This document shows positions 1 through 54,857 of a stretch of DNA of 57,787 nt, piece after piece. Below the pieces are notes generated by a model that did no database searches, was not told the origin of the DNA, and saw only the letters and a list, made by a program, of their open reading frames with translations. Numbering within the stretch: position 1 is the first letter of the stretch; each line of letters starts with the position of its first letter. The position numbers and the translations under genes are program-made. Source of the DNA: a virus (taxonomy: Duplodnaviria; Caudoviricetes); IMG/VR virus record IMGVR_UViG_3300037605_000079, positions 1 to 57,787 of that record; one strand, written 5' to 3'.

Positions 1-255
1 GCCGTATTCATCAACCCATATTAATAACTCGGCGTTGCCTGTGGTGTCTTTTACGGTAATGGTTTTGCCGGGTAGCTGAATGATGCTATCTACATTTATA
101 ACGCTTTGCACATTTCCGCCAATTAAAGTGGTATCTCGGTAGGTGATCTCTGTGGTAAATTCACGCTCAACCATCGGTGGGTAATATTTAGCGCATTTTT
201 CAGATGTGGTGCATGATAGCAAGATCATGCCAATTACAAAAATGATGTATTTCAT
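1..255 (-). CDS. Lipoprotein, spanin candidate (truncated by window edge; not in ORF track)
   Basis: ATG at 255 overlaps the holin stop (ATGA). Translation MKYIIFVIGMILLSC... has a lipobox Cys and stays open to position 1. Confidence 0.55.
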   Translation of the reverse strand, partial: MKYIIFVIGMILLSCTTSEKCAKYYPPMVEREFTTEITYRDTTLIGGNVQSVINVDSIIQLPGKTITVKDTTGNAELLIWVDEYG

Positions 256-674
256 TTGTTTACCTCCTTTTTATCGGTGAATGCCTTATTAAAACCTTTA
301 GAAATGTATGCTCTAAGGTACTGCATTAGTGATAAACCTAAAATGCTGCTAAAATTCTCTTCCAGGCTTTTACCTTCAATCAATATTAAAAGCAATGCAG
401 CCCCTTTTAAAAATGGTATTTCCGGCACTAAAAACTCCGCCCAATAGGAGAAAATAATACCCAAAGGATAAAGCACAATTTTGGACCAGCTATTTTTCAG
501 CTTTTCGGAGCTGTAAACTTCCCCACGTTTGCGACTTGCCCAGACGCCTGTGAGTATGTCTAAGGCAATTAAAAAGCCTGTAAAAAACAAAAGCGGATAA
601 ATAGGGCTTAATACCGCCGCCAATGCTGTGACCGTATAGGCTAAAGGTTTGTAATATGCAAGAGAATTAGTCAT
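252..674 (-). CDS. Phage holin (Phage_holin_4_1-like)
   Basis: Several TM helices; LIALDILTGVWASRKRGE..SSEKLKNSWSKIVLY and IEGKSLEEN pattern typical of this holin family. Confidence 0.75.
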   Translation of the reverse strand: MTNSLAYYKPLAYTVTALAAVLSPIYPLLFFTGFLIALDILTGVWASRKRGEVYSSEKLKNSWSKIVLYPLGIIFSYWAEFLVPEIPFLKGAALLLILIEGKSLEENFSSILGLSLMQYLRAYISKGFNKAFTDKKEVNK

Positions 675-894
675 TTGTAGAGTTTTGGGAAACGGTTATT
701 AGTCTTGATTTTTCTTGTTTGGTGAAGTAGTTATCTAAATAATCATCATACAGTAAGTTGAACTTTCCTTCATGCTCGATTACTTCGGTGAAGTAATCAG
801 CAAATACATTAGTATTTGCTTCATTGTAAGCCTTCAATTTACTTTGGTTTGCTTCTTCGGCTGCTTCTTTAGAATCGTAAGGTATTAATTTCAT
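667..894 (-). CDS. Small hypothetical protein, companion of LamG protein
   Basis: 75-aa ORF overlapping the LamG gene stop. Confidence 0.55.
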   Translation of the reverse strand: MKLIPYDSKEAAEEANQSKLKAYNEANTNVFADYFTEVIEHEGKFNLLYDDYLDNYFTKQEKSRLITVSQNSTND

Positions 895-1691
895 GAGTTT
901 AAGTAGTTAAATATTGCTGAAACTATCGGAGTACCTAAGCCAAGGCCAATTTTGCCAATATGGCCAATCATTTTATTGTTGCTGTTTTGTCGACTTCCAA
1001 GGCGCAAAAATATATCCTCGTCACGATCATAAAATGAAGAACCTACAAAACTTCCAGATGTAGTACTTGTAATATTCATTTCACTACCATCAATATATAG
1101 CTTCATTTTATCTGCTGTAACGCCTCCCGACCATTGAAAAATAAAATTGTGCGTATTGTTGTCGTTCAATGCTTGTGCTGATCGGTGAACAATCGTTGCG
1201 TTATTGTGTGTTTTCAATAAAGAAATTATATTGCCATCAGCATCGAAAGAAATTAAAAAGCCCGGTACGGATTGATTAAAATTTCCAACTGATAAAATCG
1301 TTTTCCCCCATACATTTCCTGTGACTTTAAATTGTCCGCAAATAAAAAATTTGTCACTAAAATCTGGTGTAAAGCTAGGCGAACGCTTGAGCATTAATTG
1401 ATTACCTGCAAAATACATCCCTTTTTTTGTTCCAAAAACGTTATTTTGTAAATCAGGCTGTAAAGTAACGCCGCTAATTACTAAATCATTTGCTTGAACC
1501 GATGCCGTACTAATAGAGTATAATCCGCTTATTTTGCCATTACTGTCCACCATACCAAAACCATTGGTTGTATTAAGTTCTAAACCATTAGGATCATAAA
1601 TCTGAATTTGGCTAAGGGCATAAGCCATAAAGTCAAACGGCTCCGCCTTTTTTCGATTTCTATATGCAGGATGTAATACTGGTACGTTCAT
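891..1691 (-). CDS. LamG/concanavalin A-like lectin-domain protein, likely receptor-binding spike
   Basis: Beta-rich, with motifs GMYFAG, LNDNNTHNFIFQW, KLYIDG, LRLGS..IGHIG. Confidence 0.7.
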   Translation of the reverse strand: MNVPVLHPAYRNRKKAEPFDFMAYALSQIQIYDPNGLELNTTNGFGMVDSNGKISGLYSISTASVQANDLVISGVTLQPDLQNNVFGTKKGMYFAGNQLMLKRSPSFTPDFSDKFFICGQFKVTGNVWGKTILSVGNFNQSVPGFLISFDADGNIISLLKTHNNATIVHRSAQALNDNNTHNFIFQWSGGVTADKMKLYIDGSEMNITSTTSGSFVGSSFYDRDEDIFLRLGSRQNSNNKMIGHIGKIGLGLGTPIVSAIFNYLNS

Positions 1692-1694
1692 CGC

Positions 1695-1832
1695 TTACTT
1701 TACCATTTTAGCGGCTCTTTTAATCGCCGTCGTCCACTTTTCACCGGGTTTTCTGATTGCCTTAGCCTTTCGGGCTATCTTGCCCACTATTGCGTTACCC
1801 TTTCTTTTGCTTGCTTTCTTTTTAGTTGCCAT
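1695..1832 (-). CDS. 45-aa very basic histone H1/protamine-like peptide (true start probably ATG 1832)
   Basis: MATKKKASKRKGNAIVGKIARKAKAIRKPGEKWTTAIKRAAKMVK; K/R/A-rich and located in the structural operon. Confidence 0.65.
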   Translation of the reverse strand: MATKKKASKRKGNAIVGKIARKAKAIRKPGEKWTTAIKRAAKMVK

Positions 1833-1849
1833 TTGTTCCAAAATTGAGA

Positions 1850-2395
1850 TTAGTAAGAAATTGATAATTGTAGGGTCCAAACTTGATTATTAGGCAGCGT
1901 AAAGCCTTTTTCCGTGCTTACTATCGCGTAAATAGCGTTACTACCCTCTTCGCATTGAAAAGCTGTAGGCTGTAAGTTCTTTGCATTACTTTTCTCGAAA
2001 TTTTCTCGGGCAGAAGATACCGGGTCGTAACTTCTTACAACTTTGTTGTCCGAAGGATCAAAACTTAATGTCATGAAGTCGACATTGGTAAACGAATTGT
2101 AAATAATCAATGGCCCTTTTTGTGACAAATTAGATTGATTGAATACAGCGCTTTCTTCAAATAGATCAACGACAACTTCTGGCGAATCGGTGATTATATC
2201 GCCTTCATAATAACGAATTAATCTAGCTGAAATAACAGCACCACCTTGCCCGGGTCTTGGCGATACGCCTTCAAATTTTATTTTATGAATAAAAGAGTAG
2301 TCTGGATAAGTTCCTGATGCTACAGGAAAATTTACTTCTGTAGATTTCCCAGTTCTATTTCGATCAGTTAAAGGTATACTTTGCAAAAAGTCCAT
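1850..2395 (-). CDS. Beta-rich structural protein (minor capsid/penton candidate)
   Basis: 181 aa, no TM segment, alternating hydrophobic strands, upstream of the spike candidate. Function is inferred. Confidence 0.4.
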   Translation of the reverse strand: MDFLQSIPLTDRNRTGKSTEVNFPVASGTYPDYSFIHKIKFEGVSPRPGQGGAVISARLIRYYEGDIITDSPEVVVDLFEESAVFNQSNLSQKGPLIIYNSFTNVDFMTLSFDPSDNKVVRSYDPVSSARENFEKSNAKNLQPTAFQCEEGSNAIYAIVSTEKGFTLPNNQVWTLQLSISY

Positions 2396-2499
2396 TTATT
2401 TTATTTTTTTGATTAAGAAATACATTGATACAATTACCGCACTAATTAAGAAAACGCCTATTATTTCTATAGGATCCACTTTTACAAATAACCCTCCGA

Positions 2500-2949
2500 T
2501 TATTGAGCTTTTTTTTTTAAATCGGCGTAGTATAAATCAGCTTCATCTTTTCGTCGCCTTACTAATCCCAGTAAAACTTGCCCACCTGCTCTAACCCATT
2601 TTTCAAATTCAACTGCAATAAATGGGTCTGAAGGATTTGCATTTACTTTTTTTAACAATGTAGATTTGCGCAAATTGCTAGGTCCTAAATTGTAAACAAA
2701 TGATACGAGCGCATCAAATTGACTCTGAGTAATATTTGATGTAACGTACTTATTTATATAGCCTTCATATTCTTTTAATTCTTCTACCAGCATACGGTTA
2801 GCATCATCTTCGGTAATGGTGTCTCCCATTTTAACGCCCTTAATATGACCATAGCCAATTGTAGGAATCCCTACCGGATCTAAATAAGCAGAAAGGCGCA
2901 AGCCTTCCCACTTTTTAATCAAATCAATGCCTTGTTTGCTGGTTTTCAT
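2500..2949 (-). CDS. GH24 phage lysozyme; -1 frame extension to 2396 adds a C-terminal TM anchor
   Basis: EGLRLSAYLDPVGIPTIGYGH catalytic motif, QFDALVSFVYNLG, GLVRRR; A10 run just before the stop. Confidence 0.92.
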   Translation of the reverse strand: MKTSKQGIDLIKKWEGLRLSAYLDPVGIPTIGYGHIKGVKMGDTITEDDANRMLVEELKEYEGYINKYVTSNITQSQFDALVSFVYNLGPSNLRKSTLLKKVNANPSDPFIAVEFEKWVRAGGQVLLGLVRRRKDEADLYYADLKKKAQ

Positions 2950-2952
2950 TTT

Positions 2953-3357
2953 TTATCGATATAAAAAGACTAAATCTGTGTCTACTTGGTCCCAAACTTC
3001 TTTACTTACAACTCCTTCGTATTTATACAAATTATAAACTACTTGTCGATACATTGCGACATCATAAGGTATTTTTAAGTTTGCGCTATCGCTTGTAAAT
3101 CCTTTAGACCACATTGCAGCACGCTCTGGGTCGGTTGTAGCTTCTCGCTCAAAACCGATAATATATTTTTTGAAAGCTAAAAGCTGATCGGGCGACAAAA
3201 CAGATTTAATATAATCCATTGCCTTACTTGCATCTGCGGTTGGATTAATTTTTTTCAATTCTTTGGCCAAATTGCTTCCGCTATTTTTAACTAGTAAAAA
3301 ATAGTAGGCTGCCGCTCCAGCGATTAACATTAAAAAGATGATGATGTAATTTTTCAT
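2953..3357 (-). CDS. Membrane protein (N-terminal TM), putative virion membrane protein
   Basis: N-terminal hydrophobic helix IIIFLMLIAGAAAYYFLLV. Confidence 0.6.
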   Translation of the reverse strand: MKNYIIIFLMLIAGAAAYYFLLVKNSGSNLAKELKKINPTADASKAMDYIKSVLSPDQLLAFKKYIIGFEREATTDPERAAMWSKGFTSDSANLKIPYDVAMYRQVVYNLYKYEGVVSKEVWDQVDTDLVFLYR

Positions 3358-3362
3358 AATAA

Positions 3363-3695
3363 TTAATTAAAAAGTTTCCATTTATTTTCCTTATTGGACC
3401 AAAATAAAACGCGATTGTCCGCTAATAGTGCGAAATCGGTATTATCGTAGTTTTTTACTTGCGCTCGAAAAAGTTTTTCTTCAAAAAATACTTCCTTCGT
3501 AAATTCTTGCCCCACTTTAGAGCGCCAAACTTCAGCTGGCGTCATTTGCTTTGAAGTTCCATTATTAACGCTTATAGGTATTATTCTGCCGATCTTATCT
3601 TCTACCACCTTGCGGCCTTTTTTGAAAAAGAAAAAATAAATTATCGCCAAAAGGAATAATCCGCCTAAACTGTATATTAATGCCTTTTTATTCAT
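3363..3695 (-). CDS. Membrane protein (N-terminal TM), putative virion membrane protein
   Basis: ALIYSLGGLFLLAIIYFFFF followed by KKGRK. Confidence 0.6.
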   Translation of the reverse strand: MNKKALIYSLGGLFLLAIIYFFFFKKGRKVVEDKIGRIIPISVNNGTSKQMTPAEVWRSKVGQEFTKEVFFEEKLFRAQVKNYDNTDFALLADNRVLFWSNKENKWKLFN

Positions 3696-3699
3696 GGTA

Positions 3700-3870
3700 T
3701 CAAAGTAGTTTTGTTACTATCGTTTTGATCGTATAAGCCGCTAAAATGATAATTAAAGCTGTTATAGCCATTGACAATAGCGTTTCTTCAGATACGGTTA
3801 TTTCTATCGGCTGAAAAGTTGTACTTTCTAACTCCGACTTTAAGCTTTTAATGGTGTTATTAAATATCAT
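3700..3870 (-). CDS. 56-aa membrane peptide (not in ORF track)
   Basis: Hand translation MIFNNTIKSLKSELESTTFQPIEITVSEETLLSMAITALIIILAAYTIKTIVTKLL; fills the gap in the operon. Confidence 0.55.
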   Translation of the reverse strand: MIFNNTIKSLKSELESTTFQPIEITVSEETLLSMAITALIIILAAYTIKTIVTKLL

Positions 3871-3954
3871 TTTTTCGATCTTTTAAAATTTGTTTTATCG
3901 ATAGAAAAGCGCTTAAACTAAGCGTTATTATTGTTAAGAATGGAATTGTTTTTT

Positions 3955-4410
3955 TCATGGCTTGATTACTTGTTTTATATAACCATAGGCTACAAATAAT
4001 AGAACAATAAATAAGGCGGGTATTAGGTACTTAAAAGAGTTGCTAGTATTTAACACTCCTTCTGTAGTGTTATTTATAACATCTGTTGTTCTTTCTCCAG
4101 TTTTTAAAACCGTATAAGTAGCGTCATTTATTACACCTACTAAACCCGTGCTAATCGACCGGTATATTCCCATGTCTTTAGCCCATTCAATAAATTCAAT
4201 GTCGTCATTAACATAATTTCCACGAATAGCTCCAAAACTCGGTGCATCCGGATTGTTCCACGCTGCAACAAAACGCTTTTTAGCTTCTTCTAATCCAAAC
4301 TCTCTAAATAGTTCATCAAACCATTTTCGCCAGTCCGCTGCACTCCAGTAAGTATCGAAGCCCCAACTGTCGTAATCTGGTTGAGAATATGCGGTTATGG
4401 TAGTCATCAC
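3955..4410 (-). CDS. Protein with C-terminal TM anchor, putative virion membrane protein
   Basis: Trp-rich N-terminus; C-terminal YLIPALFIVLLFVAYGYIK. Confidence 0.6.
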   Translation of the reverse strand: MMTTITAYSQPDYDSWGFDTYWSAADWRKWFDELFREFGLEEAKKRFVAAWNNPDAPSFGAIRGNYVNDDIEFIEWAKDMGIYRSISTGLVGVINDATYTVLKTGERTTDVINNTTEGVLNTSNSFKYLIPALFIVLLFVAYGYIKQVIKP

Positions 4411-5141
4411 CTATTTTTTAGATAAATTGATAAACCTACAACCACAGAAACAACCGATAAAATTGAAATTATAGCAATAATCAACCGAGTTTGATTTTTA
4501 TCTTCCTCATTTTTAAGGTTCATTCTCGAAATATTAAAGCTGGTTAAAGCTTGAACATTTTGACTGTTGGCCATTGCTTCCGCCGATCTTCTATCGTTAT
4601 TAGACCTTTTATTTCCATTGAATAAATTGTCTACTCCACCAAGAATGCTTCCAACTCCTTGTGCAGCTATTCCCAAAGTCATTGGGTCGAAATGATCTAA
4701 ATTAGAATGATATTTCGATAGACCTAATATTTGCCCAGGTGTTGGTCTTGTTATACCGCCTTCAAAGTGATCGATATTCCTAAATAGTTCATCCATTTCT
4801 TTTAAATTTCCGTTGTTATGTGCGCTTAAATGCGCTTTTTTTACTACAGCGTTAAATACTCTCTCATTTTCTGAACCTAAGCGCTTTTTTAATAAATTAA
4901 TAGCTTCGATCAATTCTGATGAATTTAATTTAGCTATTTGTTCCGCCGCATAATTATCAGCTTTTATTTCATCTGAACTGTCATTAACTATATGTCCAAC
5001 TTCATGCAGCAAAATAAACTTTTGCTCCTGATCTGTTAGCTTAGGAAACTCTATTTCGTTAATGTAGATTTCTTTTGTTGCTCTATTTGCTGCGGCTAAT
5101 GAGTTTCCTAAAAAATCGACATACAAAACGTTTATTGTCAT
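4407..5141 (-). CDS. HEXXH zinc metallopeptidase domain fused to a Gly-rich segment and C-terminal TM
   Basis: FILLHEVGHIVN...DEIKADNYAA (HEXXH plus downstream E..AD, as in M48/M78-like peptidases); C-terminal LIIAIISILSVVSVVVGLSIYLKNR. Confidence 0.7.
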   Translation of the reverse strand: MTINVLYVDFLGNSLAAANRATKEIYINEIEFPKLTDQEQKFILLHEVGHIVNDSSDEIKADNYAAEQIAKLNSSELIEAINLLKKRLGSENERVFNAVVKKAHLSAHNNGNLKEMDELFRNIDHFEGGITRPTPGQILGLSKYHSNLDHFDPMTLGIAAQGVGSILGGVDNLFNGNKRSNNDRRSAEAMANSQNVQALTSFNISRMNLKNEEDKNQTRLIIAIISILSVVSVVVGLSIYLKNR

Positions 5142-5455
5142 CTATTCTTAATTAGATAAAATAAACCTCCCAGAAAAACAACAACCGCAAAAACTCCCAA
5201 TATTTTTGAGTAATTAGTAGTTTTAATTGGGGCTTCTTCTTTTGGTTTTACATTTCTCTCTACAGCTGGAGTTGCCCTAAATTCAGGCATTGATGGTGCA
5301 CTCGGTTTTGCTGAATTAATACCAGCAACATCAGCCACTGACTGAAATCCTTCTGAAATAATTTTTTTTGGACTGTCGCCAGAAAGTAGTTTACCGGCAC
5401 TAGTTATTGGATTAACATTTACAATTGCTTTTCCAACTTTTTTAAAAAATTCCAT
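5138..5455 (-). CDS. Protein with C-terminal TM anchor, putative virion membrane protein
   Basis: Amphipathic N-terminus MEFFKKVGKAI, Pro-rich linker, C-terminal TM ending LIKNR. Confidence 0.6.
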   Translation of the reverse strand: MEFFKKVGKAIVNVNPITSAGKLLSGDSPKKIISEGFQSVADVAGINSAKPSAPSMPEFRATPAVERNVKPKEEAPIKTTNYSKILGVFAVVVFLGGLFYLIKNR

Positions 5456-5456
5456 T

Positions 5457-6068
5457 TTAACGTTTCTTTTTTAGCACCAAAGCGCCGATGAATAATACAA
5501 TAGCAACACCAATTCCAATTACTAAAGGTTTTTTGTAAAACGGAACAGACTCTTCAGCTTCATCTAAAATATTGGGAGTAGTTGCATTTGGAATTGCTGG
5601 TTTTGATAAATTTACCTCAGACACGCCTCCTTTTAAATTGCCTATCAACTTACTTGCACTATCTAACACAGTAACAAACTGGTTTAAGCTCCATTTTTTA
5701 GGCTCTGCGTCAACTTGAGATGGTTTATCATTTAACTCCTTAGAGCCTAAAATAACTCCCTCGAATGGCCGACTAAATACGGGTCCTAACAATGATCCCT
5801 CAAAATTAGATACCATCAAATTAGGTCTTGTTTTTTTTGCTTCAGACTTAATATTTTCTGGCATTTTTTCATCGCGATAAACTTGATAAAGTTCTCGAGC
5901 AAAATCAGCTCCAGAAGGTCCTTTATACGCTTCGATTATCTTAGCTACTGTAACTTCTCCGTACTGATTAAATCGTTGCATCACGGCAACTACGCGATCT
6001 TTATTTTTTTGTATTAAATCAAGTATGAATTTTTCTAATACAATTCTGTCTTCTGCTGTTTTAGACAT
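5457..6068 (-). CDS. Protein with C-terminal TM anchor, putative virion membrane protein
   Basis: FYKKPLVIGIGVAIVLFIGALVLKKKR; internal SNFEG and PFEG motifs. Confidence 0.6.
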   Translation of the reverse strand: MSKTAEDRIVLEKFILDLIQKNKDRVVAVMQRFNQYGEVTVAKIIEAYKGPSGADFARELYQVYRDEKMPENIKSEAKKTRPNLMVSNFEGSLLGPVFSRPFEGVILGSKELNDKPSQVDAEPKKWSLNQFVTVLDSASKLIGNLKGGVSEVNLSKPAIPNATTPNILDEAEESVPFYKKPLVIGIGVAIVLFIGALVLKKKR

Positions 6069-6090
6069 TTGATTATTTTTTTATATTGGT

Positions 6091-6124
6091 AAAAAGAAAG
6101 GGGCACACGCTAGCGTACCCCTTT
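6091..6124 (-). terminator. Rho-independent terminator after the capsid candidate
   Basis: AAAGGGG...CCCCTTT stem with an A-run on + (U-tract on -). Confidence 0.6.
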
Positions 6125-6165
6125 AATTATTAATCAATCAATGAACGCCGATTAAAGCAAGGTTT

Positions 6166-6777
6166 TTACTGAGAAACTTCCCAATATCCTTCTAAAGTGA
6201 TTTCAGCATCTGAACTCTTAGGCACATTCAAAATCGCTACGCTTAAAGGACCCATTGTAAACACGTCGTTATACTCTGGTAAATAAGCCACAATTTTAGA
6301 ACCTTGGTTCTGATTTGTACTGAAGTACTTTTTCAAAGAAATACGTCTTTCAGATTCAGACTGGAATGGGTGAGCAGGACCAACTACTAAATCTTTATCG
6401 AAAGACTTTGGGTTGTTAGAACTGTACTCAATTCGCTCTACAACAAAATTGAATTTCTTCAACAAACCCTGAAGGTGCGAAATAGTCAATTTTGGATCAG
6501 TCGGAGTCATGGTAACTTTACCGTCGATGACCGGACCGTCTACAGCAATCGCTTCGGTTGCAAAGCCATAGTTTTTTAACTCCGAATTGTTCGCTAATAA
6601 TGCTGAACTAATTGCGATCGGTGTAGTAGCATCAGCCGTAGCTGTTGCAGAAATGTTAAAAGCAAATTTAACTGGTATTCTCATGTTGTTGGATTTTGCA
6701 GAAGGGTTTTCGCCTTCAAAATTATCAATAGATCTTTGCGCGTTTCTAGCCGCCGCTCTCAAAACTTCGTTATCCAT
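6166..6777 (-). CDS. Major capsid protein candidate (single jelly-roll size)
   Basis: 203 aa, soluble and beta-rich. Near the start of the structural operon, downstream of the packaging ATPase, followed by a terminator. Fold not verified. Confidence 0.55.
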   Translation of the reverse strand: MDNEVLRAAARNAQRSIDNFEGENPSAKSNNMRIPVKFAFNISATATADATTPIAISSALLANNSELKNYGFATEAIAVDGPVIDGKVTMTPTDPKLTISHLQGLLKKFNFVVERIEYSSNNPKSFDKDLVVGPAHPFQSESERRISLKKYFSTNQNQGSKIVAYLPEYNDVFTMGPLSVAILNVPKSSDAEITLEGYWEVSQ

Positions 6778-6789
6778 TTTTTATAAAAA

Positions 6790-7014
6790 TTATGACGCTT
6801 TTGCGTCGGCTGTTTTACTAACTACAGAAAGCTTTGGCTTGCTTTCCTTTTTGCGCTTGTGCTCGTTAATTGTTCCGGTAAATGTTTTTCCTTCGCCATC
6901 CGTTAACGAAACAGTTTTTACTGTCATTTTCTTATCATAAATGATAACGGCTAACATTGCAACCGCGAAAATTGCGAGTAAATAAAAAACTGATTTTATT
7001 GAAATATTATTCAT
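6790..7014 (-). CDS. Small membrane protein with basic C-terminus
   Basis: N-terminal TM VFYLLAIFAVAMLAVIIY; KRKKESKPK tail. Confidence 0.6.
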   Translation of the reverse strand: MNNISIKSVFYLLAIFAVAMLAVIIYDKKMTVKTVSLTDGEGKTFTGTINEHKRKKESKPKLSVVSKTADAKAS

Positions 7015-7197
7015 TTGATAGGTTTTGAAATTAATTCAGGAGCAAATATTACTGTCGGGCTTAAATTTTTCGGACGATTTCACGCTATTCCGAACTTAAT
7101 TAGTTGAATTTAGGCATTAAACAACTTTGTGAGCTATTAATTTGAATAAAAAAAAGCGCTCAAAAAGAATGAACGCTTTATTTAGGTTTTTATAGTT

Positions 7198-7413
7198 TTA
7201 AAAATCGTCGGTTAGACCGCCTATTTCTTCATCTATTATTTTTAACTGCTTAGGACTAAATTTTCTCGATGTTTTAATGTAGCCCGTTTCATTTACTAAT
7301 CGGTCAAATATGCGACCAGAATTAAAAATTTCATGATCGTTTTTAGACAAGCCTAATTTTTCTAAGACTGTAGCTTTCCAATTGTATTTATTAATGTTGA
7401 AATTTTCAGTCAT
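7198..7413 (-). CDS. Small hypothetical protein, possibly DNA-binding
   Basis: 71 aa with RKFSPKQLKII..EIG motif; function uncertain. Confidence 0.45.
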   Translation of the reverse strand: MTENFNINKYNWKATVLEKLGLSKNDHEIFNSGRIFDRLVNETGYIKTSRKFSPKQLKIIDEEIGGLTDDF

Positions 7414-7416
7414 TGT

Positions 7417-8025
7417 TTAAGGTCTTACATCTAAAGTGACGTTTATATGTTTATTTTTTGATCTTGATATTATTTGAAGCGCCTTTTCTATTTCAGGAGA
7501 AGGAAACCTGGATCTAGTTCTCTTTATTTCCTCTCCTGTTTTAAATAGCGTCAAAAGATCTATGTATGGACATAGCTCCAGAGGTATTTTGATCACCATA
7601 TGAAATACCAATATTAAATCAACGTTCTTTTGCTTACTATCCAATACTAAATTCCTTTGAGATTCGGTTAGTTTGCCATTAAGAAAAAATCGCGTAGCAT
7701 CTTCGACAATTACTAACATATTATAACAGTACTTTGCCGCGATCATTAAGGATAAATTAACGTCTGAAGAACAAACTCTTTTGACTCGTACGCCGTCATT
7801 TCCCCATCTCGGGACTTGCAAAGGTTCTATTATTGGAATGGATGTATTATTATCTGGATCATCATATGTTGCTAATGTTCTCCATGTTTGAGAGTCGAAG
7901 GTATCTATTATCAAGACTTTTATTTCAGGCCTTGAAGCTAAGACTTTCTTAATTTTATTTTTTGTAAAGTCAGTTTTTCCAGTACCTCGTCCACCTGCTA
8001 AAGCTGTAACTAAATTTACACTCAT
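7417..8025 (-). CDS. FtsK/HerA-superfamily genome-packaging ATPase (A32/PRD1 P9-like)
   Basis: N-terminal Walker A GGRGTGKT, VLIID strand, Walker B LVIVEDAT, SKQKNVDLILVFH motif; ~200 aa with no TM or nuclease domain. Confidence 0.8.
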   Translation of the reverse strand: MSVNLVTALAGGRGTGKTDFTKNKIKKVLASRPEIKVLIIDTFDSQTWRTLATYDDPDNNTSIPIIEPLQVPRWGNDGVRVKRVCSSDVNLSLMIAAKYCYNMLVIVEDATRFFLNGKLTESQRNLVLDSKQKNVDLILVFHMVIKIPLELCPYIDLLTLFKTGEEIKRTRSRFPSPEIEKALQIISRSKNKHINVTLDVRP

Positions 8026-8027
8026 TT

Positions 8028-8597
8028 TTAAGCTGTTAAAACGTTAATCAATCTAGTACCTACTAATTCCGCTAGTTTGACATAAAAAAGACCTTTAACA
8101 TTCATTTCAAAGCCTGTTTCTTCAGCGTATAGCTCGCAAACTTCTCGGAAATCTTCTTTTTCTTCGTCATTTAATTTTAATGATGCTTTTAGTTTTTCGA
8201 GCTTTGAGGAATAAAAAGCGGCTCTTTCCTGAAGTTCGATTTCTTCTGGCGTTAGCTTGCCTTGGTCTTTTGTTTCGATTAGTTCTAATTGGCCCCAATC
8301 ACTTTCGGATAGTTTCTTTTCAAACTTATGATTGAGAAAAGGTACACCAAAATTAAGCGCTAAAGATAAGGCGGATACCATACCTTTAGCAGTTACATCT
8401 GCAGATTGTTTTCGTTCTCCTGCTTCTTCAGCTTCAAAATTTAGGCGATTTTCTTCTTCTTCATGCTCTAAAAATTCAGGCTCTGGATCTGGTATTGGTG
8501 GAGGAGTAAATTTTGGCTCTTTATACTCTTTATCCTGCATTAATTCATCTACAAGACTAACTGTATTAGCAAGGTTTTTAAATTCATCATTCAGCAT
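8028..8597 (-). CDS. Hypothetical protein upstream of ATPase (packaging accessory candidate)
   Basis: Acidic/Pro-rich N-terminus, weakly hydrophobic segments, abuts the ATPase gene. Confidence 0.5.
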   Translation of the reverse strand: MLNDEFKNLANTVSLVDELMQDKEYKEPKFTPPPIPDPEPEFLEHEEEENRLNFEAEEAGERKQSADVTAKGMVSALSLALNFGVPFLNHKFEKKLSESDWGQLELIETKDQGKLTPEEIELQERAAFYSSKLEKLKASLKLNDEEKEDFREVCELYAEETGFEMNVKGLFYVKLAELVGTRLINVLTA

Positions 8598-8904
8598 TGT
8601 TTTCGGCTTTTATTTGTAGATCAATTTTTTTGATAATAGGCCATATGTCAGCCATTGGAGCAAATTTTTCTTTAAAACTATTGCTTTTGTTTTTTTTGAA
8701 TGGATTGGGCGAAAAATGACTTAAAAGCATTGGGATTAATGAAGATTTTATTTTTTCTTCTACAGCTTCAGCACCTTCATTTATTGAGTTTGTTAACTCC
8801 AGATTTTCTATCACTTTATAGATGTTAGAGTGAATAGCTTTAATATCTTCTTTTTTTTCCTGAAGCTCTGCTTTTAATAGCTCGTTTTCTAGTTCTAAAT
8901 TCAT
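8587..8904 (-). CDS. Hypothetical protein
   Basis: 105-aa ORF overlapping the next gene; coiled-coil N-terminus. Confidence 0.5.
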   Translation of the reverse strand: MNLELENELLKAELQEKKEDIKAIHSNIYKVIENLELTNSINEGAEAVEEKIKSSLIPMLLSHFSPNPFKKNKSNSFKEKFAPMADIWPIIKKIDLQIKAENNAE

Positions 8905-8908
8905 AGGG

Positions 8909-9532
8909 CTATTTATTAAGATCGTTAGAAGTTAAACCGGTATAAAACACGTTATCCTGGTTAAATAGTCGACCTTCATTAAAGAATGATTTTCTAAGGA
9001 TTTCGCCGTATGATTCTGGCGAAATAGATTCTCCTTGCTTTGCTTTTCTTGTGCCTTGAAGAAATCGTTTTTGCGAGATTACATTTAATACTTTTCTTTC
9101 ATTTTCTGATAGTACTACGATTGCCTGATTTTCATTTAATCGCTTTTCTACTTCGACGATTTTTTCAACTTCGACAACTTTTTCGACCTCTTTTTCTACT
9201 TCTACGGTCTTAGGCGCTGAAGTATAGCTTTTCATTAATTGGATTAAAAAACCTTCGTGAGTTTCTCCAGCTTTTGCGGCTAGGTCCATAAAGGTTCCTT
9301 TGATTTTTGGGGTTGTCTTTATTCCGAAAGTAGCTTTTTTCCTTGGAACGGCTATAACTGTCGGTTCGCTTGGGGTTTGCTTTTGATTATTCGAGGTTTC
9401 GCCTTGGTTTTCCTTCGGTTTCGCTTGGTTTAACTGCGAGTTTTCCGAATGTTCACCGCTAGTTTTCTCTAAGTTATCGTCTATATTCATCGGGTTGTTT
9501 ATTGGTTTACTTATTTTTTTACAAATAAACAA
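8909..9532 (-). CDS. Hypothetical protein with VEVEK repeats (start probably ATG 9490)
   Basis: Low-complexity N-terminus; VEVEKEVEKVVEVEKIVEVEK repeat. Confidence 0.55.
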   Translation of the reverse strand: MFICKKISKPINNPMNIDDNLEKTSGEHSENSQLNQAKPKENQGETSNNQKQTPSEPTVIAVPRKKATFGIKTTPKIKGTFMDLAAKAGETHEGFLIQLMKSYTSAPKTVEVEKEVEKVVEVEKIVEVEKRLNENQAIVVLSENERKVLNVISQKRFLQGTRKAKQGESISPESYGEILRKSFFNEGRLFNQDNVFYTGLTSNDLNK

Positions 9533-9609
9533 GAGGGCAACCGCCGATAATAGAGGTTAATTATATAGATAGGCTTTATTTATGCTTTTGATCAAAAAAG
9601 TTAAACGAC

Positions 9610-9672
9610 CCACAACAAGTTTATAAAATTCATTTCGCTACGCTTCACGACGTTTTTATAAACGTGTTGTGC
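9610..9672 (+). repeat. attC-like hairpin site A1
   Basis: CCACAAC...GTTGTGC ends; inner stem GTTTATAAAA/TTTTATAAAC. Confidence 0.65.
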
Positions 9673-9678
9673 GCAATA

Positions 9679-9939
9679 CTAAATTGGCTCGAAATTATCA
9701 TTAAAGTATTGTTCAGCAACTAACCATTGGTCAAGGTGGTTTTTAGGGTTTCGAGCTATCATATCGCCAATTTTAGGGCTACCCGCTTTCTTATCTTCAT
9801 CGGATATTGAAACGCCAATTGTCGAATCAGGAGTTGAATGAACAATTATTTGTCCATAAACACCATATTCATTCACATCCATATCGGTAACTTCTCTTAA
9901 TTCGCCAATTTGCTTACGTCTATATTTGTTAAATGTCAT
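9679..9939 (-). CDS. Cassette-borne hypothetical phage protein (start probably ATG 9939)
   Basis: GSPKIGDMIARNPKNHLDQWLVAEQYF; lies exactly between two attC-like sites. Confidence 0.65.
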   Translation of the reverse strand: MTFNKYRRKQIGELREVTDMDVNEYGVYGQIIVHSTPDSTIGVSISDEDKKAGSPKIGDMIARNPKNHLDQWLVAEQYFNDNFEPI

Positions 9940-9952
9940 AATAAAGTACTGC

Positions 9953-10083
9953 ACACAACACAGTATATAAAACAGTGGGGTGCTGTGTGTCTTTTTAACC
10001 CACTTGCACTTAATTAATTTTATCAGCTTCGGATAGGTAAGTGCATCCTATCCCCACCGTTTCATATACTCGGCACGTTGTAG
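9953..10083 (+). repeat. attC-like hairpin site A2
   Basis: ACACAAC...GTTGTAG ends; stem AGTATATAAAACAGTGGGG/CCCCACCGTTTCATATACT whose A-C mismatches become G-T pairs on the bottom strand. Confidence 0.7.
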
Positions 10084-10087
10084 GAAA

Positions 10088-10348
10088 TTAATTATCTTCT
10101 TTGGGATGTCCGCATTTTTTGCAATATGATGAACCTTTAAAGTTTTCCATAAAATATTGACATTTTTTAGTTTTGCAATTAGGACAAATTTTTAAAGATT
10201 TATCATTTGAAGAATTGTTATTTTTAGACTCCTTATGCCATACAAACATGGTTATTAATTCTACCAATGAAAATGCAAAAGTATCAGTCTCATCTAGCCA
10301 ATCTTTTACTTCTTTTTCTAGCTCGTGGTATTGTTTTTTATCTTCCAT
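10088..10348 (-). CDS. Small Zn-finger protein
   Basis: CPNC...C...CKKCGH. Confidence 0.55.
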   Translation of the reverse strand: MEDKKQYHELEKEVKDWLDETDTFAFSLVELITMFVWHKESKNNNSSNDKSLKICPNCKTKKCQYFMENFKGSSYCKKCGHPKEDN

Positions 10349-10351
10349 TTT

Positions 10352-10609
10352 TCAATTAACTTGTCCGTTAACTTTATCTGATAAATGTTTTCTGAAGGCG
10401 TTTTTTAAGTTGATAGCATAGTACGTTTTGCCTTCAATTTGAAACTCTTTTAAACCTTGCTTTTTTAGACGCTCAAACTTTAATAATTCAGCTTTCAACC
10501 TTAATGCTTTAGATCTTTTATTTATCGCTCTAATTATTGCTTTGTAAGTCATTTCGGCTAAAAAAATAGCTGCAATAAAAACCAATATTTCAATAATTAT
10601 TTTTAACAT
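10352..10609 (-). CDS. Small membrane protein
   Basis: N-terminal hydrophobic helix followed by a basic domain. Confidence 0.5.
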   Translation of the reverse strand: MLKIIIEILVFIAAIFLAEMTYKAIIRAINKRSKALRLKAELLKFERLKKQGLKEFQIEGKTYYAINLKNAFRKHLSDKVNGQVN

Positions 10610-10754
10610 TTACTTTTAATTTTCTTGTTATCCACTTGCTAACCATCTCCTCTTTCAGATTAAATTTTATTGATAAAGCTTTCATGGTGCACCCTGTTTT
10701 TAAATAGTGCTCATATGCGGCGTTTATGATTTTAAAATTGGTAATTGCAGGCAT
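10590..10754 (-). CDS. 54-aa HTH-like protein (not in ORF track)
   Basis: Hand translation ...YLKTGCTMKALSIKFNLKEEMVSKWI... resembles a helix-turn-helix. Confidence 0.45.
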   Translation of the reverse strand: MPAITNFKIINAAYEHYLKTGCTMKALSIKFNLKEEMVSKWITRKLKVNVKNNY

Positions 10755-10770
10755 AACTATAGCTTTTAGT

Positions 10771-10806
10771 AAAAAGCGGCTTAGGTATCAACTAAGCCGC
10801 TTTTTA
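10771..10806. terminator. Bidirectional terminator after ssb
   Basis: AAAAAGCGGCTTAG...CTAAGCCGCTTTTT inverted repeat. Confidence 0.75.
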
Positions 10807-10808
10807 AA

Positions 10809-11141
10809 TTAGTCTTTCACGCCTCCAAGAAGCTTTAATTCTCTTACAGTTAATGTTTGAGATTGGCCCTTTCCGCCGTCTTTTTTATCGTACATATTAA
10901 GCCCGGGCAATCCTGATACATAAACTTGTGTACCTTTTTTTAAATAGGAAGCTACTTTTGTGCTTCCGCCTTCCTTTACCCATTTAGAACACTCTACCCA
11001 CTCTGTTTTTTCACTTACAACGCCGTCAGCGTTTACATAACTTTCATTTACTGCTACAGAAAAGTTTATTACTTGCTTTTTTTCATGTTGGCCGATTTTA
11101 GCGTCAGCTCCTAGATTTCCGATTATTGTTAAAACTCTCAT
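10809..11141 (-). CDS. ssb: Single-stranded DNA-binding protein
   Basis: IIGNLGADA, FSVAVNE, TEWVEC, YLKKGTQVYVSG OB-fold motifs. Confidence 0.9.
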   Translation of the reverse strand: MRVLTIIGNLGADAKIGQHEKKQVINFSVAVNESYVNADGVVSEKTEWVECSKWVKEGGSTKVASYLKKGTQVYVSGLPGLNMYDKKDGGKGQSQTLTVRELKLLGGVKD

Positions 11142-11177
11142 ATTAATTTATTTATTGATTGATTAAAAATTTATTTA

Positions 11178-12866
11178 CTATTCAAAGTCTTCTGAAGGTT
11201 GCATTAGGGACCATTTTAAAAGCTCGTAGTTTTGCCTATTTTCTGAAAATTCTTTATCCATTTCATTAACACGCTCACGCTTACGCTTTCTACTGATTAC
11301 TTCTTTTATTTGATTATTTATCATTTCTAGCATCGCAGATACGAGTTTGTCGCTTGCCAGATAGCTTACTTTTGCTTTTTCGCTTAATGTTGGTTTATAA
11401 TCCTTTTCTTTATCTACAAAAACGGCGGTAGCTCTAGCAACTAAATACTTTACATTTTCATCAGGATTTAACGTTTCAGGATTTACCGTTTCTTCACGTC
11501 CGTAATTTTCCAGAACTTCGTTTAATTCATCTTCACAAGTAGGGTTTATATTTAGGCAATCAACACCATGAAGAGCGCCGAATTTTCGGTATAAAGGCTG
11601 CTTATATATTTCCGGCAATACTTCATTAATTAAATCAAAGTTGTAAATTCCATCATATTCCTCGCGCTTTAAATTCTCCAATACCGCATAATCATAAATT
11701 GTCAATCCTTCGTCGTCCGTTGTGGCTATTTCTTGCACGCCTTTAGTTTTAGTTAATTTTACGGCGTGTTTCTTTAGTCCTATAGGTTCAAAATGATATT
11801 TTATACATTCCATAATACCAGATAAAAAACTTTCCGGATCCTCTGGGTTTACATAGTGCTTCCATTTTTGTACATCAGGCATCCACCGATCAAAGGAGCT
11901 TTTTTTCTTTTTTGAAAGAATGTATAAACTTTCAAGGCTTATCATTGTCGCGCCAGTAGGATCTAAACTTTCAATAAATAGCTTATCCGTTTCATTGGCG
12001 CTTCCATAGCCTTTTTTATTCCCTAAAGCTTTCGCTATCCCTTCTCGGTCGGCTTCGGTAAATTCAACGCGTGAAGCGTCAGCCGTTGCCGTTTGCATAT
12101 TCCAATGCTTTAGTATGTTTCGGTATAAATTATTTCTATTTTTATCGATTTTATACGCGATAACTAAAGCGTGTATGTGTACGTGCATACCGTTAGCGCC
12201 TTTAGTTACTTCTACTCCAAATTCTCCGCCAAATACCGATTCTTTCCAGAATTTCTTTTTACGTAAAAAATTAAATTCCTTCATTAATTCTTTAGCGTAA
12301 AACTTTTTACCTCTCCAGCCTTCTTCGTTGTGAGGAACTGTCAGTGTTAGATGAAAAAAACTATAATCTTTAGTCGGTAAATCTTGGTAGCCTGTTAGCG
12401 TTTTAATGCGTTTCGGAACGCCTTTTTTAATCATTCGACCAGTTGGTCCATATTCAGGAAAGGTTTTATAAACTGTATTTCCGTTTTCATCGGTTACCGT
12501 CTTACTTTCGTAGCTCGGCAAGTGCATAACGCCGCCTTTAAAGAAATTATAGTACTTTGATCGGACTACTCTTTGTCGTTCCTTATTACATACGGGGCAA
12601 AGCTTGTGCTTGCACGTTTGCGAGGCTATGTATTCCAAAGCTCCGTTTGTTTGGTATTCTCTAAATAAGCTATTATTTGCGCATTGTTGAAGCGAAGATC
12701 TAAGGTTAATTAAGTGCATCATGTTATCGTTGTGCAAATCGTCGCAAGCTGAAGAAATTAAATAGTCATCAATCTCTGTATGTAGCTTTTTCGCTTCTCG
12801 GGCTGCATTAGCAATTTTATAGAGTCTTAATCGATTGCTTTTTCTACGTTTTTTTAATTCGTCCAT
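11178..12866 (-). CDS. rep: HUH rolling-circle replication initiator (Rep_1/pC194-like, with insertions)
   Basis: Zn motif CKHKLCPVC, motif I FHLTLTVP, EFGVEVT, motif II HVHIHAL, motif III ECIKY, RKFGALHG. Confidence 0.85.
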   Translation of the reverse strand: MDELKKRRKSNRLRLYKIANAAREAKKLHTEIDDYLISSACDDLHNDNMMHLINLRSSLQQCANNSLFREYQTNGALEYIASQTCKHKLCPVCNKERQRVVRSKYYNFFKGGVMHLPSYESKTVTDENGNTVYKTFPEYGPTGRMIKKGVPKRIKTLTGYQDLPTKDYSFFHLTLTVPHNEEGWRGKKFYAKELMKEFNFLRKKKFWKESVFGGEFGVEVTKGANGMHVHIHALVIAYKIDKNRNNLYRNILKHWNMQTATADASRVEFTEADREGIAKALGNKKGYGSANETDKLFIESLDPTGATMISLESLYILSKKKKSSFDRWMPDVQKWKHYVNPEDPESFLSGIMECIKYHFEPIGLKKHAVKLTKTKGVQEIATTDDEGLTIYDYAVLENLKREEYDGIYNFDLINEVLPEIYKQPLYRKFGALHGVDCLNINPTCEDELNEVLENYGREETVNPETLNPDENVKYLVARATAVFVDKEKDYKPTLSEKAKVSYLASDKLVSAMLEMINNQIKEVISRKRKRERVNEMDKEFSENRQNYELLKWSLMQPSEDFE

Positions 12867-12883
12867 CTTTTATTTTTAGGAAG

Positions 12884-12980
12884 GCCGCGGATTACCGCGG
12901 CAACTATTTTTATAACTAACCCTTTTTTTTTGCGTTTTCGCTTTAGGATTCCGAGCGTTTCTTATTTATCGAGGTAGGAG
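12884..12980 (-). promoter_or_regulatory. Candidate double-strand origin (dso)
   Basis: GC hairpin GCCGCGG-ATTA-CCGCGGC (12884-12901) and minus-strand TACCTCGATAAATAAG (CTCGATA at 12967-12973), similar to the pC194/phiX174 CTTGATA nick site, directly upstream of rep. Confidence 0.4.
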
Positions 12981-13010
12981 TTATTTACTTAATTACTAAC
13001 TTTTTAAAAA

Positions 13011-13277
13011 TTACCGTTCAAATTGAAATCCAGCTTCTGCTTTTACGTCTTCAGGAATTGAAACGAGCGACTTAATACGCTCAATACCTCCTAATGCGTC
13101 TACTGTTTCAATAATTTGTTTAAACTCATCAAGGAGCTTTAAATCGTGCTTAAAGCTTGGGTTGCTATCCAATAGTATATGGCCATTGTTGTAATAGTTT
13201 GATTCAATCGCTTTTTTGAAAATCGAAAAAGTCAAGTCCAGCTTTCGTTCTCTAAATGATTTAAATTTCTTAGGCAT
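13011..13277 (-). CDS. Hypothetical protein
   Basis: 88-aa ORF in the early operon. Confidence 0.5.
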   Translation of the reverse strand: MPKKFKSFRERKLDLTFSIFKKAIESNYYNNGHILLDSNPSFKHDLKLLDEFKQIIETVDALGGIERIKSLVSIPEDVKAEAGFQFER

Positions 13278-13451
13278 GGTCTAAATTGTTTTTTATTGGT
13301 TATTTCGGTGTTCCGCCTTGAAGGGCGGGGAAACTCGAAGTTTTTAAAAGAAGTTAGGGTCAGAATTGGACCAGGGCTTTCAACTCCTGGTCCTTCTTCT
13401 TTCAAAAAACTCTGGCGGTGGTTTCCAATCAGTCGCCAAAGCAAAAAATCT

Positions 13452-13922
13452 TTATTCTATTTGGCTACATCGCTTTACTTGGCTGTAATGCTCCGCTTGT
13501 CGTATTATTTCGTTTAAATTTTCAGCCGCCACATTATGCGAAATATTGTTTTCGTGGGGTAACACTGCTTTTAAGTGCCTTAAATTCATCATTGAAAACT
13601 TAGCTACTTCTTTAAGCGTTTTTTCGCCATTCTTTCCCCGGGCGTAATCTCTTAACATTTGGCAGTTTTCAAGGCTCTTTCGCTTGTTTGGTTGCGGAAT
13701 ATTTGAGTTGACAATTATATTCTCACAATGGGTAATATATGTAATCAGTTGTTTGGTATAAACTTGCTTTCTGTATTGATTCAGGAAGCTATAAGCAGCC
13801 CGAGCGTTTAAAAACTTCTTTTTAATCACTTCAAAATCTTTAGCGGCGGTTTCTCTAGCCTTTATCATCAAGTAACTAGCACCGGTTATTGGGTCGATTT
13901 GTAAAAACTTGTCTGCTATCAT
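13452..13922 (-). CDS. Hypothetical protein
   Basis: 156-aa ORF, ATGA-coupled to the upstream gene. Confidence 0.55.
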   Translation of the reverse strand: MIADKFLQIDPITGASYLMIKARETAAKDFEVIKKKFLNARAAYSFLNQYRKQVYTKQLITYITHCENIIVNSNIPQPNKRKSLENCQMLRDYARGKNGEKTLKEVAKFSMMNLRHLKAVLPHENNISHNVAAENLNEIIRQAEHYSQVKRCSQIE

Positions 13923-14110
13923 GCTGCTTTAGATTTATTATTAAATTCATTATAAACTCTCATTAGTAGCTTACTAGCATTCCTATTTTCAGAATTTAGC
14001 TTTTCTCGCTCTACATCATTGGTCGATCTTTTGGATTCTTGATCCGTTGCATAAATCTGGTTAATTAACGATCGCTTTATAATCTCCAGTTCCTCATTAC
14101 TTAATACCAT
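13919..14110 (-). CDS. Hypothetical protein
   Basis: 63-aa helical ORF in operon. Confidence 0.5.
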   Translation of the reverse strand: MVLSNEELEIIKRSLINQIYATDQESKRSTNDVEREKLNSENRNASKLLMRVYNEFNNKSKAA

Positions 14111-14114
14111 AGGA

Positions 14115-14324
14115 TTAATTATTTTGAATTATTAAATGAATGAAACATAGAATTGATAGTATGAATAAAATCGTACTAAATCCATCTGAAAATCTTCTCA
14201 ATTGGTCCGCATTAAAATAACGCTGCCTTAGAAAAGTCTTAATAATTAGATCTGTATTCAATAAATATGAAGTGGCCATCATTATAATTGCCACACATAC
14301 AATGTATAGATTAATGCTTTCCAT
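14115..14324 (-). CDS. Small two-TM membrane protein
   Basis: Two hydrophobic helices. Confidence 0.5.
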   Translation of the reverse strand: MESINLYIVCVAIIMMATSYLLNTDLIIKTFLRQRYFNADQLRRFSDGFSTILFILSILCFIHLIIQNN

Positions 14325-14634
14325 GTATTGTTTTGTTGTATTTATGAAAAATCTCGCTTTTTAAATGAATAAGCTTTGAAGCAGAGGGTTTTGAAGTAGC
14401 GCGTTTCTTCTTGCTGTAAGATTTATGCAATTGCTTGGGCGTTACATTTAAAACCTCTTGTATTAATAGCAACTCGTGAAAATTTGGGTCTGATTTTTTA
14501 TTATAAATCGAATTAAATCGACGTTTAGTCATCTCTAACTTGACCAATAAATCAGCTGAAGGAATAAATTTAGCAACCATATAACGTTCGGTTAAAACCT
14601 CTTTTAATTGATTGTATATTAATTCTTTATTCAT
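14311..14634 (-). CDS. Cro-like HTH regulator
   Basis: LEMTKRRFNSIYNKKSDPNFHELLLIQEVLNVT XRE-like pattern; divergent from the repressor. Confidence 0.6.
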   Translation of the reverse strand: MNKELIYNQLKEVLTERYMVAKFIPSADLLVKLEMTKRRFNSIYNKKSDPNFHELLLIQEVLNVTPKQLHKSYSKKKRATSKPSASKLIHLKSEIFHKYNKTIHGKH

Positions 14635-14814
14635 ATTTTATAAACTTGGCACATTTATAGTTTGAAAGAAAGCGCCAGAATTATATCTGGCGCTTAGGTT
14701 CTCCCGCTTTTTGTAAGATCTACCAAAATCATAACATTGATCGGGGGAGAGGAGTATTAAAATATTTTTGTGCTTTGCAATCATGTTATCTGATTTTGGT
14801 ATGATGCAAATGTA

Positions 14815-14880
14815 AATGATTTTCATTTAATAAAACAAGATAATCAATGAAAAACATTTTAAATTACAATGAAAACCATT
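14815..14880. promoter_or_regulatory. Three operator-like palindromes AATG-N5-CATT
   Basis: AATGATTTTCATT (14815), AATGAAAAACATT (14846), AATGAAAACCATT (14868) between divergent cro and repressor. Confidence 0.65.
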
Positions 14881-14915
14881 GCACAAAAAGTTTAAGTGAT
14901 TAATACTTTTAACCT

Positions 14916-15341: not shown

Positions 15342-15346
15342 ATATT

Positions 15347-54719: not shown

Positions 54720-54857
54720 GTGCTTCCAATTCAAGTTTACTTGAAAGTTGGAAAAACAATGATAACTTCCGAAATAAATTCGGGACTAGGCTACCGGTTA
54801 ATTAAAGCATCCTCTCTAAACAAAAAAAGCACCTTAATTTCTTAAGATGCTTTAATG

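Follow-up and report, generated by a model that had tools for sequence, protein, structure and literature searches.

A poly-A tract separates a GH24 lysozyme gene from an out-of-frame membrane anchor in a small provirus

At positions 2,396 to 2,949 of the window (the whole 57,787-nucleotide stretch of viral DNA analysed here), a lysozyme gene on the minus strand stops just past a run of ten A residues, and the frame one base back stays open through a predicted transmembrane (TM) helix to the start of the next gene. The question is whether the two frames are parts of a single gene and, if so, which proteins that gene would make. A preliminary description of this DNA had proposed that ribosomal frameshifting or transcriptional slippage at the run yields both a soluble endolysin and a virion-anchored enzyme.

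The lysozyme gene and the frame beyond its poly-A tract

The 0-frame ORF encodes a GH24 phage lysozyme. It matched the Phage_lysozyme profile PF00959 with 155.1 bits (cut-off 22.3; 1.4e-45) over profile positions 1-125 of 125, and matched the endolysin family phrog_7 at 1.3e-57. The GH24 catalytic arrangement is Glu-x8-Asp-x5-Thr; the window protein has E15, D24 and T30, all three unchanged in eight of eight aligned clade members. The protein does not resemble a SAR endolysin, as its N-terminus (MKTSKQGIDLIKKWEG) is hydrophilic and there is no TM segment across the 149 aa. The gene ends GAT TTA AAA AAA AAA GCT CAA TAA (…DLKKKAQ, then stop); translation bears out the earlier statement that the 0 frame closes right after A10, with the stop two codons past the run.

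Reading on from the first A of the tract yields KKKSSIIGGLFVKVDPIEIIGVFLISAVIVSMYFLIKKIK and a stop. The final A of the tract is the first base of the AGC codon, which makes this a true -1 frame. The slipped product would have 184 aa (lysozyme residues 1-147 plus 37), and the same lysozyme-tail fusion is obtained from an mRNA with A11 or A8. The tail consists of a linker, then a hydrophobic helix (19-mer Kyte-Doolittle mean of 2.05), then KKIK, and its TAA directly adjoins the ATG at 2395 of the downstream ORF (Table 1).

The space that this tail occupies is unusual for its surroundings. Adjacent genes in this string overlap or lie within 5 nt of each other, save at two junctions: 97 nt at 6069-6165 and the 104 nt after the lysozyme gene (2396-2499). 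The 97-nt gap contains a terminator-like hairpin of 12 pairs, whereas the 104-nt gap has none. We also considered the alternative-frame extensions at ORF ends in the window (n = 136). Six of these are open for at least 30 codons and include a TM-grade segment, and the five other than the lysozyme tail are real downstream genes with their own ATG. The 104-nt "gap" probably codes for protein. The tail resembles the C-terminal TM helices and basic ends of five ORFs just upstream. These observations uphold what had been noted about the -1 frame, namely that it runs to a TAA immediately before the ATG at 2395, that it fills a gap of about 100 bp (104 nt, rare in this tight gene string), and that its helix and basic tail are like those of the neighbours (five ORFs of the same C-terminal type). 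None of the five neighbouring anchors has KKK before the helix, indicating that KKK is not a general requirement of such tail anchors.

The tract itself stands out in the window. It is T10 on the plus strand (2509-2518) and one of only two A/T runs of at least 10 in the 57,787 bases; six runs reach at least 9. The other long run is an A11 at 42397-42407 on the plus strand, which lies between ORFs 41908-42249 and 42550-44061 in the tailed-phage part. There are 17 KKK windows in the 77 minus-strand ORFs, and an unbroken AAAAAAAAA is found only at the lysozyme, an AAG codon being present in all 16 others. At the proportion of AAA among Lys codons in the window (57%), about three unbroken A9 KKK sites were expected and one was observed. 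Long A runs seem to be avoided elsewhere in the window and kept in the lysozyme gene.

The run length was checked in contigs from the two public sequencing runs found to contain this stretch, neither of them an RNA run, bearing in mind that contigs drop rare variants. A Logan contig of run X1 (word depth 93), possibly the source run, was identical to the window across 1850-3700 with 0 gaps. A 151-nt contig of run X2, from another sample and study, spans 2459-2609 with 0 differences and carries A10 with flanks of 50 and 91 bases. The preliminary description had left the length of the homopolymer to be confirmed; at the contig level it is A10 in both runs, without gaps, and an A11 misassembled as A10 is thus unlikely.

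Table 1. Positions of the lysozyme locus and of other features in the window
Feature	Position	Strand	Basis or remark
GH24 phage lysozyme ORF, 0 frame, 149 aa	2949..2500	-	PF00959 and phrog_7 matches
A10 run, mRNA sense (TT A AAA AAA AAA G); encodes the clade-invariant KKK; proposed slippage site	2509..2518	-	
-1-frame continuation, KKK + 37 codons + TAA	2396..2518	-	Translation from first A of run
Predicted TM helix IIGVFLISAVIVSMYFLI, 18 residues, -1 frame	2411..2464	-	
Basic tail KKIK	2399-2410	-	
Stop TAA of the -1 frame	2398-2396	-	
27-aa GTG-start ORF inside the -1 frame	2396..2479	-	GTG at 2479, GGAGGG 12 nt upstream
Downstream ORF, 181 aa, without family match	1850..2395	-	
Holin, Phage_holin_4_1	252..674	-	
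Lipoprotein-like ORF after the holin, runs off the window	1-255	-	
ORF ending in TM helix + basic tail, 56 aa	3700-3870	-	
ORF ending in TM helix + basic tail, 151 aa	3955-4410	-	
ORF ending in TM helix + basic tail, 244 aa	4407-5141	-	
ORF ending in TM helix + basic tail, 105 aa	5138-5455	-	
ORF ending in TM helix + basic tail, 203 aa	5457-6068	-	
32-aa TM ORF in the same upstream block	3860-3958	-	
Walker A ORF, 202 aa, N-terminal GGRGTGKT	7417-8025	-	Motif
SSB, left element	10809-11141		
Rep_1, left element	11178-12866		
cI-type HTH repressor, left element	14916-15341		
Serine integrase, left element	16038-17723		
Primase, right part (tailed-phage region)	19131-22613		
Tape-measure protein, right part (tailed-phage region)	30068-32818		

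Relatives in frame and out of frame

The TM segment belongs to the lysozyme gene, as had been supposed, in that 13 homologues carry the helix in frame after KKK. Six of these were found among the best 120 of 6751 homologues as single ORFs of 168-175 aa (56-65% identity) with the order lysozyme, KKK, helix, basic tail; nearly all other homologues among those listed end near …LYF[ST]. A later list, the best 120 from a profile of the six in-frame proteins, raised the number of in-frame fusions to 13 (P0003, P0004, P0005, P0011, P0014, P0078, P0123-P0128 and P0140). These are 49-68% identical and have the lysozyme, KKK, 17-20 hydrophobic residues and a basic tail. KKK is unchanged in eight of eight aligned clade members, whereas the two to six residues that precede it differ in every sequence. 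The window 0-frame protein aligns with the clade up to KKK and then ends. The 15-residue linker of the window tail (SSIIGGLFVKVDPIE) is absent from the in-frame homologues, and hhalign of the 40-residue window tail against the clade profile gave no alignment. In two further proteins, P0129 and P0137, the tail that follows KK[KN] has no TM segment.

The out-of-frame layout was found at a second locus. We scanned one genome per prokaryote species with the pattern E-A-[DE]-L-Y, 2-6 codons, A9. Of 36 stretches recovered, one was a lysozyme: L238, in a provirus of a Paludibacteraceae MAG, 52% identical to the window protein. Its run is also A10 (CCA AAA AAA AAA GTT), the 0-frame stop follows seven codons on, and the -1 frame reads KKKSYAKYLLVTAITGITLFYLFSKNNKL, then stop, with a helix and basic tail and with its TGA overlapping the ATG of the downstream gene. 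In that -1 frame, a TTG within the helix is the sole possible start codon (ATG, GTG or TTG); the TM frame of L238 therefore cannot be a separate gene. Both loci inspected at the DNA level (the window and L238) thus have the out-of-frame layout. The preliminary description had looked to homologues for a conserved slippery site and a -1-frame TM segment, and this was borne out in part: L238 has A10 and the same layout, but 13 relatives are in frame. Because of these 13, the out-of-frame state is not universal and could be a recurrent mutation at a hypermutable tract.

The two elements are very different outside this gene. BLASTP of the window element against the L238 element (about 17 kb) found no shared protein except the lysozyme. 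The gene order is common to both: C-terminally anchored proteins, lysozyme, two unknown ORFs, a small TM protein, a lipoprotein with a C-terminal helix, and an integrase. Ten ORFs of the L238 element were scanned; they include a replication initiator and a methyltransferase, and no tailed-phage hallmark was found among them. DNA pattern scans of the genomes around G001, 401 at the level of order and 151 at that of family, found the arrangement in none but G001. A 133-aa ORF at L238 3375-3776 on the plus strand (equivalent to L390 17876-18277) is built like a unimolecular spanin: its N-terminal signal is lipoprotein-like (…LAILCTSC…) and it has a C-terminal TM helix. Behind it lie a tyrosine integrase and, next, a host aminoacyl-tRNA-synthetase-like gene.

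Other relatives end at KKK or soon after it. These are P0010 (KKK, then stop; four contigs), P0122 (KKKRLG, then stop; three contigs) and P0395 (KKKLN, then stop), the last with 70% identity in a search with the L238 lysozyme. The same search found 29 cluster representatives at 84-95% identity. They are pairwise 85.6-99.3% identical (mean 95%), with 37 of 146 columns variable, and they count as one lineage, not as 29 independent events. All 29 end in GI[P/S/T]KKK followed by VTLNIY, VSINIY, VI or VM and a stop, that is, KKK, two to six codons and a stop; none has an in-frame TM segment, and there are three different 0-frame tails. The persistence of KKK and an early stop while the 0-frame tail varies argues against both an assembly error and a freely flipping tract. 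The KKK-stop relatives beyond the window and L238 were seen as called proteins, from which we infer their run lengths and -1 frames. One more relative of the L238 lysozyme, P0396 (192 aa), is multiply frame-shifted and reads into the TM frame (…TAITSITFLFVSK…); an error-rich contig is its probable source, and no count includes it.

Wider searches recovered many GH24 lysozymes and, among the matches listed, no further members of the clade. IMG/VR was scanned with five queries (the lysozymes of the window and of L238, the clade alignment, P0124 and P0128), and no match listed was a KKK-TM clade member; none of 65 loci from a JGI metagenome scan with P0005 was from the clade. A DNA pattern scan of viral_contigs gave four stretches, one of them in a lysozyme and with its run past the stop; a subclade-specific DNA pattern had 0 matches. 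In GenBank phages, tblastn with P0005 hit 3335 records, none reaching 60% identity; the 25 matches listed end at about residue 140-144, short of the tail. The best 150 matches of a representative-protein profile search were generic GH24 proteins. Eleven unrelated GH24 lysozymes (L162, L163, L167, L170, L182, L183, L193, L318, L319, L359 and L365) have long C-terminal extensions that end hydrophobic, in frame and without KKK or an A-run. Based on these extensions, C-terminal anchoring of GH24 seems to have arisen more than once.

Decoding of the tract and competing explanations

Two products made by slippage are the best reading of the locus, since homologous tails are in frame in relatives, the A10 was confirmed, and the layout recurs in L238 and its subclade. 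We regard the anatomy, the real A10 in the DNA, the TM tail as a homologous continuation, and the recurrence of the out-of-frame layout as established at the level of sequence. In our judgement, the gene probably makes both a soluble lysozyme and a tail-anchored one, through recoding at its poly-A tract.

The proposed gene would include the lysozyme, KKK and the TM anchor, its two parts lying one base out of register at the tract. Standard decoding of A10 would give the 149-aa soluble GH24 lysozyme, a usual holin-dependent endolysin, and a one-base slip at the tract would give the 184-aa lysozyme with a C-terminal membrane anchor. Most likely RNA polymerase would add one A to make an A11 mRNA; a -1 ribosomal slip on A_AAA_AAA would be less likely. 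The anchored form would then sit in a viral or cytoplasmic membrane alongside the tail-anchored proteins encoded nearby, with slippage presumed to occur at a useful rate in the host and both products to be used.

The preference for RNA polymerase is due to the absence of a stimulatory RNA structure. A heptamer of the X XXY YYZ type, A AAA AAA, occurs twice within TTA AAA AAA AAA. However, RNA folds of 120-135 nt from just upstream of the run were no more stable than shuffled sequences (z = -0.34 for the window and +0.92 for L238), no structure was shared by the window and L238 RNAs, and there is no SD-like element upstream of the window run. The original proposal of frameshifting or slippage thus holds as to the two products, which are its best reading, and loses ground as to classical ribosomal frameshifting, for which no stimulator was found. 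In the phage tail chaperone pair G/GT, a conserved -1 ribosomal frameshift close to the 3' end of the gene makes the short and extended forms in a constant ratio; it takes place at a heptanucleotide that usually has no long homopolymer. The window differs from G/GT in having a 10-base run without a detectable downstream structure.

Transcriptional slippage at such tracts has precedents. In many bacteria, runs of at least nine A or T are described as sites where transcription slips. Such runs are put to use in dnaX of Thermus thermophilus and mxiE of Shigella, and they join ORFs both in mxiE and in IS elements (PMC1088944). In Citrobacter rodentium tssM1, an A11 before a stop gives two TssM forms, reported as functional and both required (PMC4256274). 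These systems (A11 in tssM1, T9 in mxiE, A9 in dnaX, and the IS elements) resemble the window in having a run of at least nine at the junction and an early 0-frame stop. As they are described (PMC4256274; PMC1088944), they also resemble our proposal in that one extra non-templated base makes the long product, no RNA stimulator is needed, and both forms can function. They differ from the window in that here the gene is a phage lysozyme, a membrane anchor is added, relatives are in both frame states, and the case is known from sequence alone. Some AT-rich bacteria are said to tolerate long A runs without evident slippage (PMC1088944).

The slipped product would also have counterparts among known endolysins that end in a TM domain. 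Three of these, M4Lys of Salmonella phage BSPM4, the endolysin of Hafnia phage Enc34 and LysAP of Acidovorax phage AP1, are described with an N-terminal catalytic domain and one C-terminal TM helix with charged ends (PMC7143992; PMC8943055; PMC8879335), and the TM domain of M4Lys is reported to be indispensable for holin-independent lysis on overproduction (PMC7143992). All three are presented as single in-frame ORFs of tailed phages, whereas the window anchor is reached only by a change of frame; the catalytic domains given for M4Lys and the Enc34 endolysin are not GH24, and that of the window is. In our clade, a catalytic domain and C-terminal TM helix are in one polypeptide in the 13 in-frame homologues, and in the window only in the slipped product. 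Our literature search (titles, abstracts and passages) found no endolysin with dual expression by transcriptional slippage or programmed frameshifting. Both ingredients, poly-A slippage and endolysins with a C-terminal TM domain, are known, and their combination in a clade-conserved lysozyme was not found in that literature.

Three other explanations must be weighed against the production of two proteins by slippage. The tract could be a mutational hotspot at which an ancestral in-frame fusion lost one A (or gained two), here and independently elsewhere, so that the anchor was lost or varies by phase at the DNA level and any rescue by slippage is incidental and unselected. This account is possible, although we consider it rather unlikely. 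It draws on the 13 in-frame relatives, on the hypermutability reported for long A runs (PMC1088944), and on the nature of these elements, which are proviruses and can decay; moreover, the element has its own holin and a spanin-like lipoprotein, so that a soluble lysozyme alone could suffice for lysis. About 7% of random codons are stops at the base composition of the window, giving a 37-codon frame an approximately 6% chance of being open, and if the shift were recent, an intact frame of 26-37 codons would be weak proof of selection. Against this, the early stop is retained in all 29 members of the subclade around L238, with no in-frame revertant, which is not expected of a freely flipping tract. 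In addition, the window and L238 share A10, the direction of the shift, an intact TM helix and basic tail, and a stop exactly at the following start; the contigs of two samples had only A10, though rare variants drop out of contigs; and the lysozyme run is the sole unbroken AAA-AAA-AAA among the KKK sites of the window.

If instead there were two separate genes, the lysozyme would be followed by an independently initiated 27-aa membrane peptide, for example a holin/antiholin-like or virion membrane protein. An in-frame GTG with the SD-like GGAGGG upstream would allow this, and small TM ORFs occur nearby, such as the 32-aa ORF. Yet an SD-like core precedes only 1 of 53 window ORFs, and for that reason GGAGGG is better read as the Gly-Gly codons of the linker. 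Large window ORFs almost always start with ATG, no ATG, GTG or TTG precedes the helix in L238, and the helix is fused to the lysozyme in 13 homologues, making a separate peptide quite improbable. Least probable of all, and by our estimate very improbable, is an error of sequencing or assembly that hides a true A11 and a plain fused ORF. Homopolymers are error-prone and an A11 product would match the in-frame homologues, but the X1 assembly at depth 93 and the 151-nt X2 contig both have a gapless A10, and L238 and about 33 protein clusters from other assemblies would need the same error repeatedly.

The element and a possible role for the anchored form

The record looks composite, with a small element on the left (1-17723) and a tailed-phage region on the right (19131-57787). 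No tailed-phage genes were recognisable among the 25 ORFs scanned in the left element (252-16048), and those from about 19 kb on appear to belong to a second, adjacent prophage. Two tRNA genes, tRNA-Leu(taa) and tRNA-Gly(gcc), lie at 54857-55058 on the minus strand, near the right end of the record.

Some genes of the left element are candidates for virion functions. The Walker A ORF had no Pfam or PHROG match, and a PDB sequence search gave nothing below E = 0.25; by size and position it presumably resembles the small packaging ATPases of tailless membrane-containing phages. A 203-aa ORF (6166-6777) is directly followed by the terminator-like hairpin (6097-6124, minus strand; 12 pairs, 6 of them G-C), a position that would suit a highly expressed capsid gene. 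For this capsid candidate, an atlas search gave weak leads (<0.9) to small jelly-roll coat proteins, no family match and no IMG/VR relatives were found, and the AlphaFold model made without an alignment was unusable (pLDDT of 46.6). The product of the ORF at 4407-5141 on the minus strand has a weak Peptidase_M78/IrrE-like match just below the cut-off, the motif HEVGH and a C-terminal TM anchor, and may be a membrane-tethered metallopeptidase beside the lysozyme block.

The preliminary description had compared the two lysozyme products with P7 and P15 of PRD1. In PRD1, P7 is a virion transglycosylase and P15 a soluble endolysin, the two are encoded by different genes, and there are many small membrane proteins. 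The likeness would lie in having one membrane-associated and one soluble wall-degrading activity, for which the window would use a single GH24 gene. By contrast, the PRD1 virion enzyme has a transglycosylase fold, and the window element is known from its genes, with no recognised double jelly-roll capsid among them. By analogy, the idea fits the context: a block of tail-anchored proteins, a small Walker A protein, and Rep_1, SSB, a repressor and a serine integrase without tailed-phage structural genes among the 25 ORFs scanned. On this view the anchored form would be a putative virion entry enzyme like that of PRD1.

A broader version of this idea is that a conserved poly-A switch makes a soluble lysis enzyme and an anchored form that is built, with the tail-anchored proteins encoded beside it, into an internal membrane, the latter form opening the wall at entry, in undescribed small (about 15-17 kb) tailless temperate viruses of Bacteroidota. 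We consider this version rather unlikely; under it, relatives in the two frame states would differ only in the proportion of each form that they make.

Should the slip be put to use, a virus would have a compact way to make its wall-degrading enzyme both free and tethered to a membrane with one gene only. The few bacterial genes known to be expressed through transcriptional slippage would then include a phage lysis or entry enzyme. In annotation, a complete gene is probably the wrong call for clade lysozymes ending just after …KKK, and the "gap" of roughly 100 nt that follows them probably codes for protein. With KKK invariant and the frame state flipping, the clade offers a clean system for learning what preserves or removes tracts prone to slippage. 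It also brings to light two small, very divergent proviruses that are rich in tail-anchored proteins and have no recognisable tailed-phage genes among the ORFs scanned, and these may belong to unexplored membrane-containing viruses.
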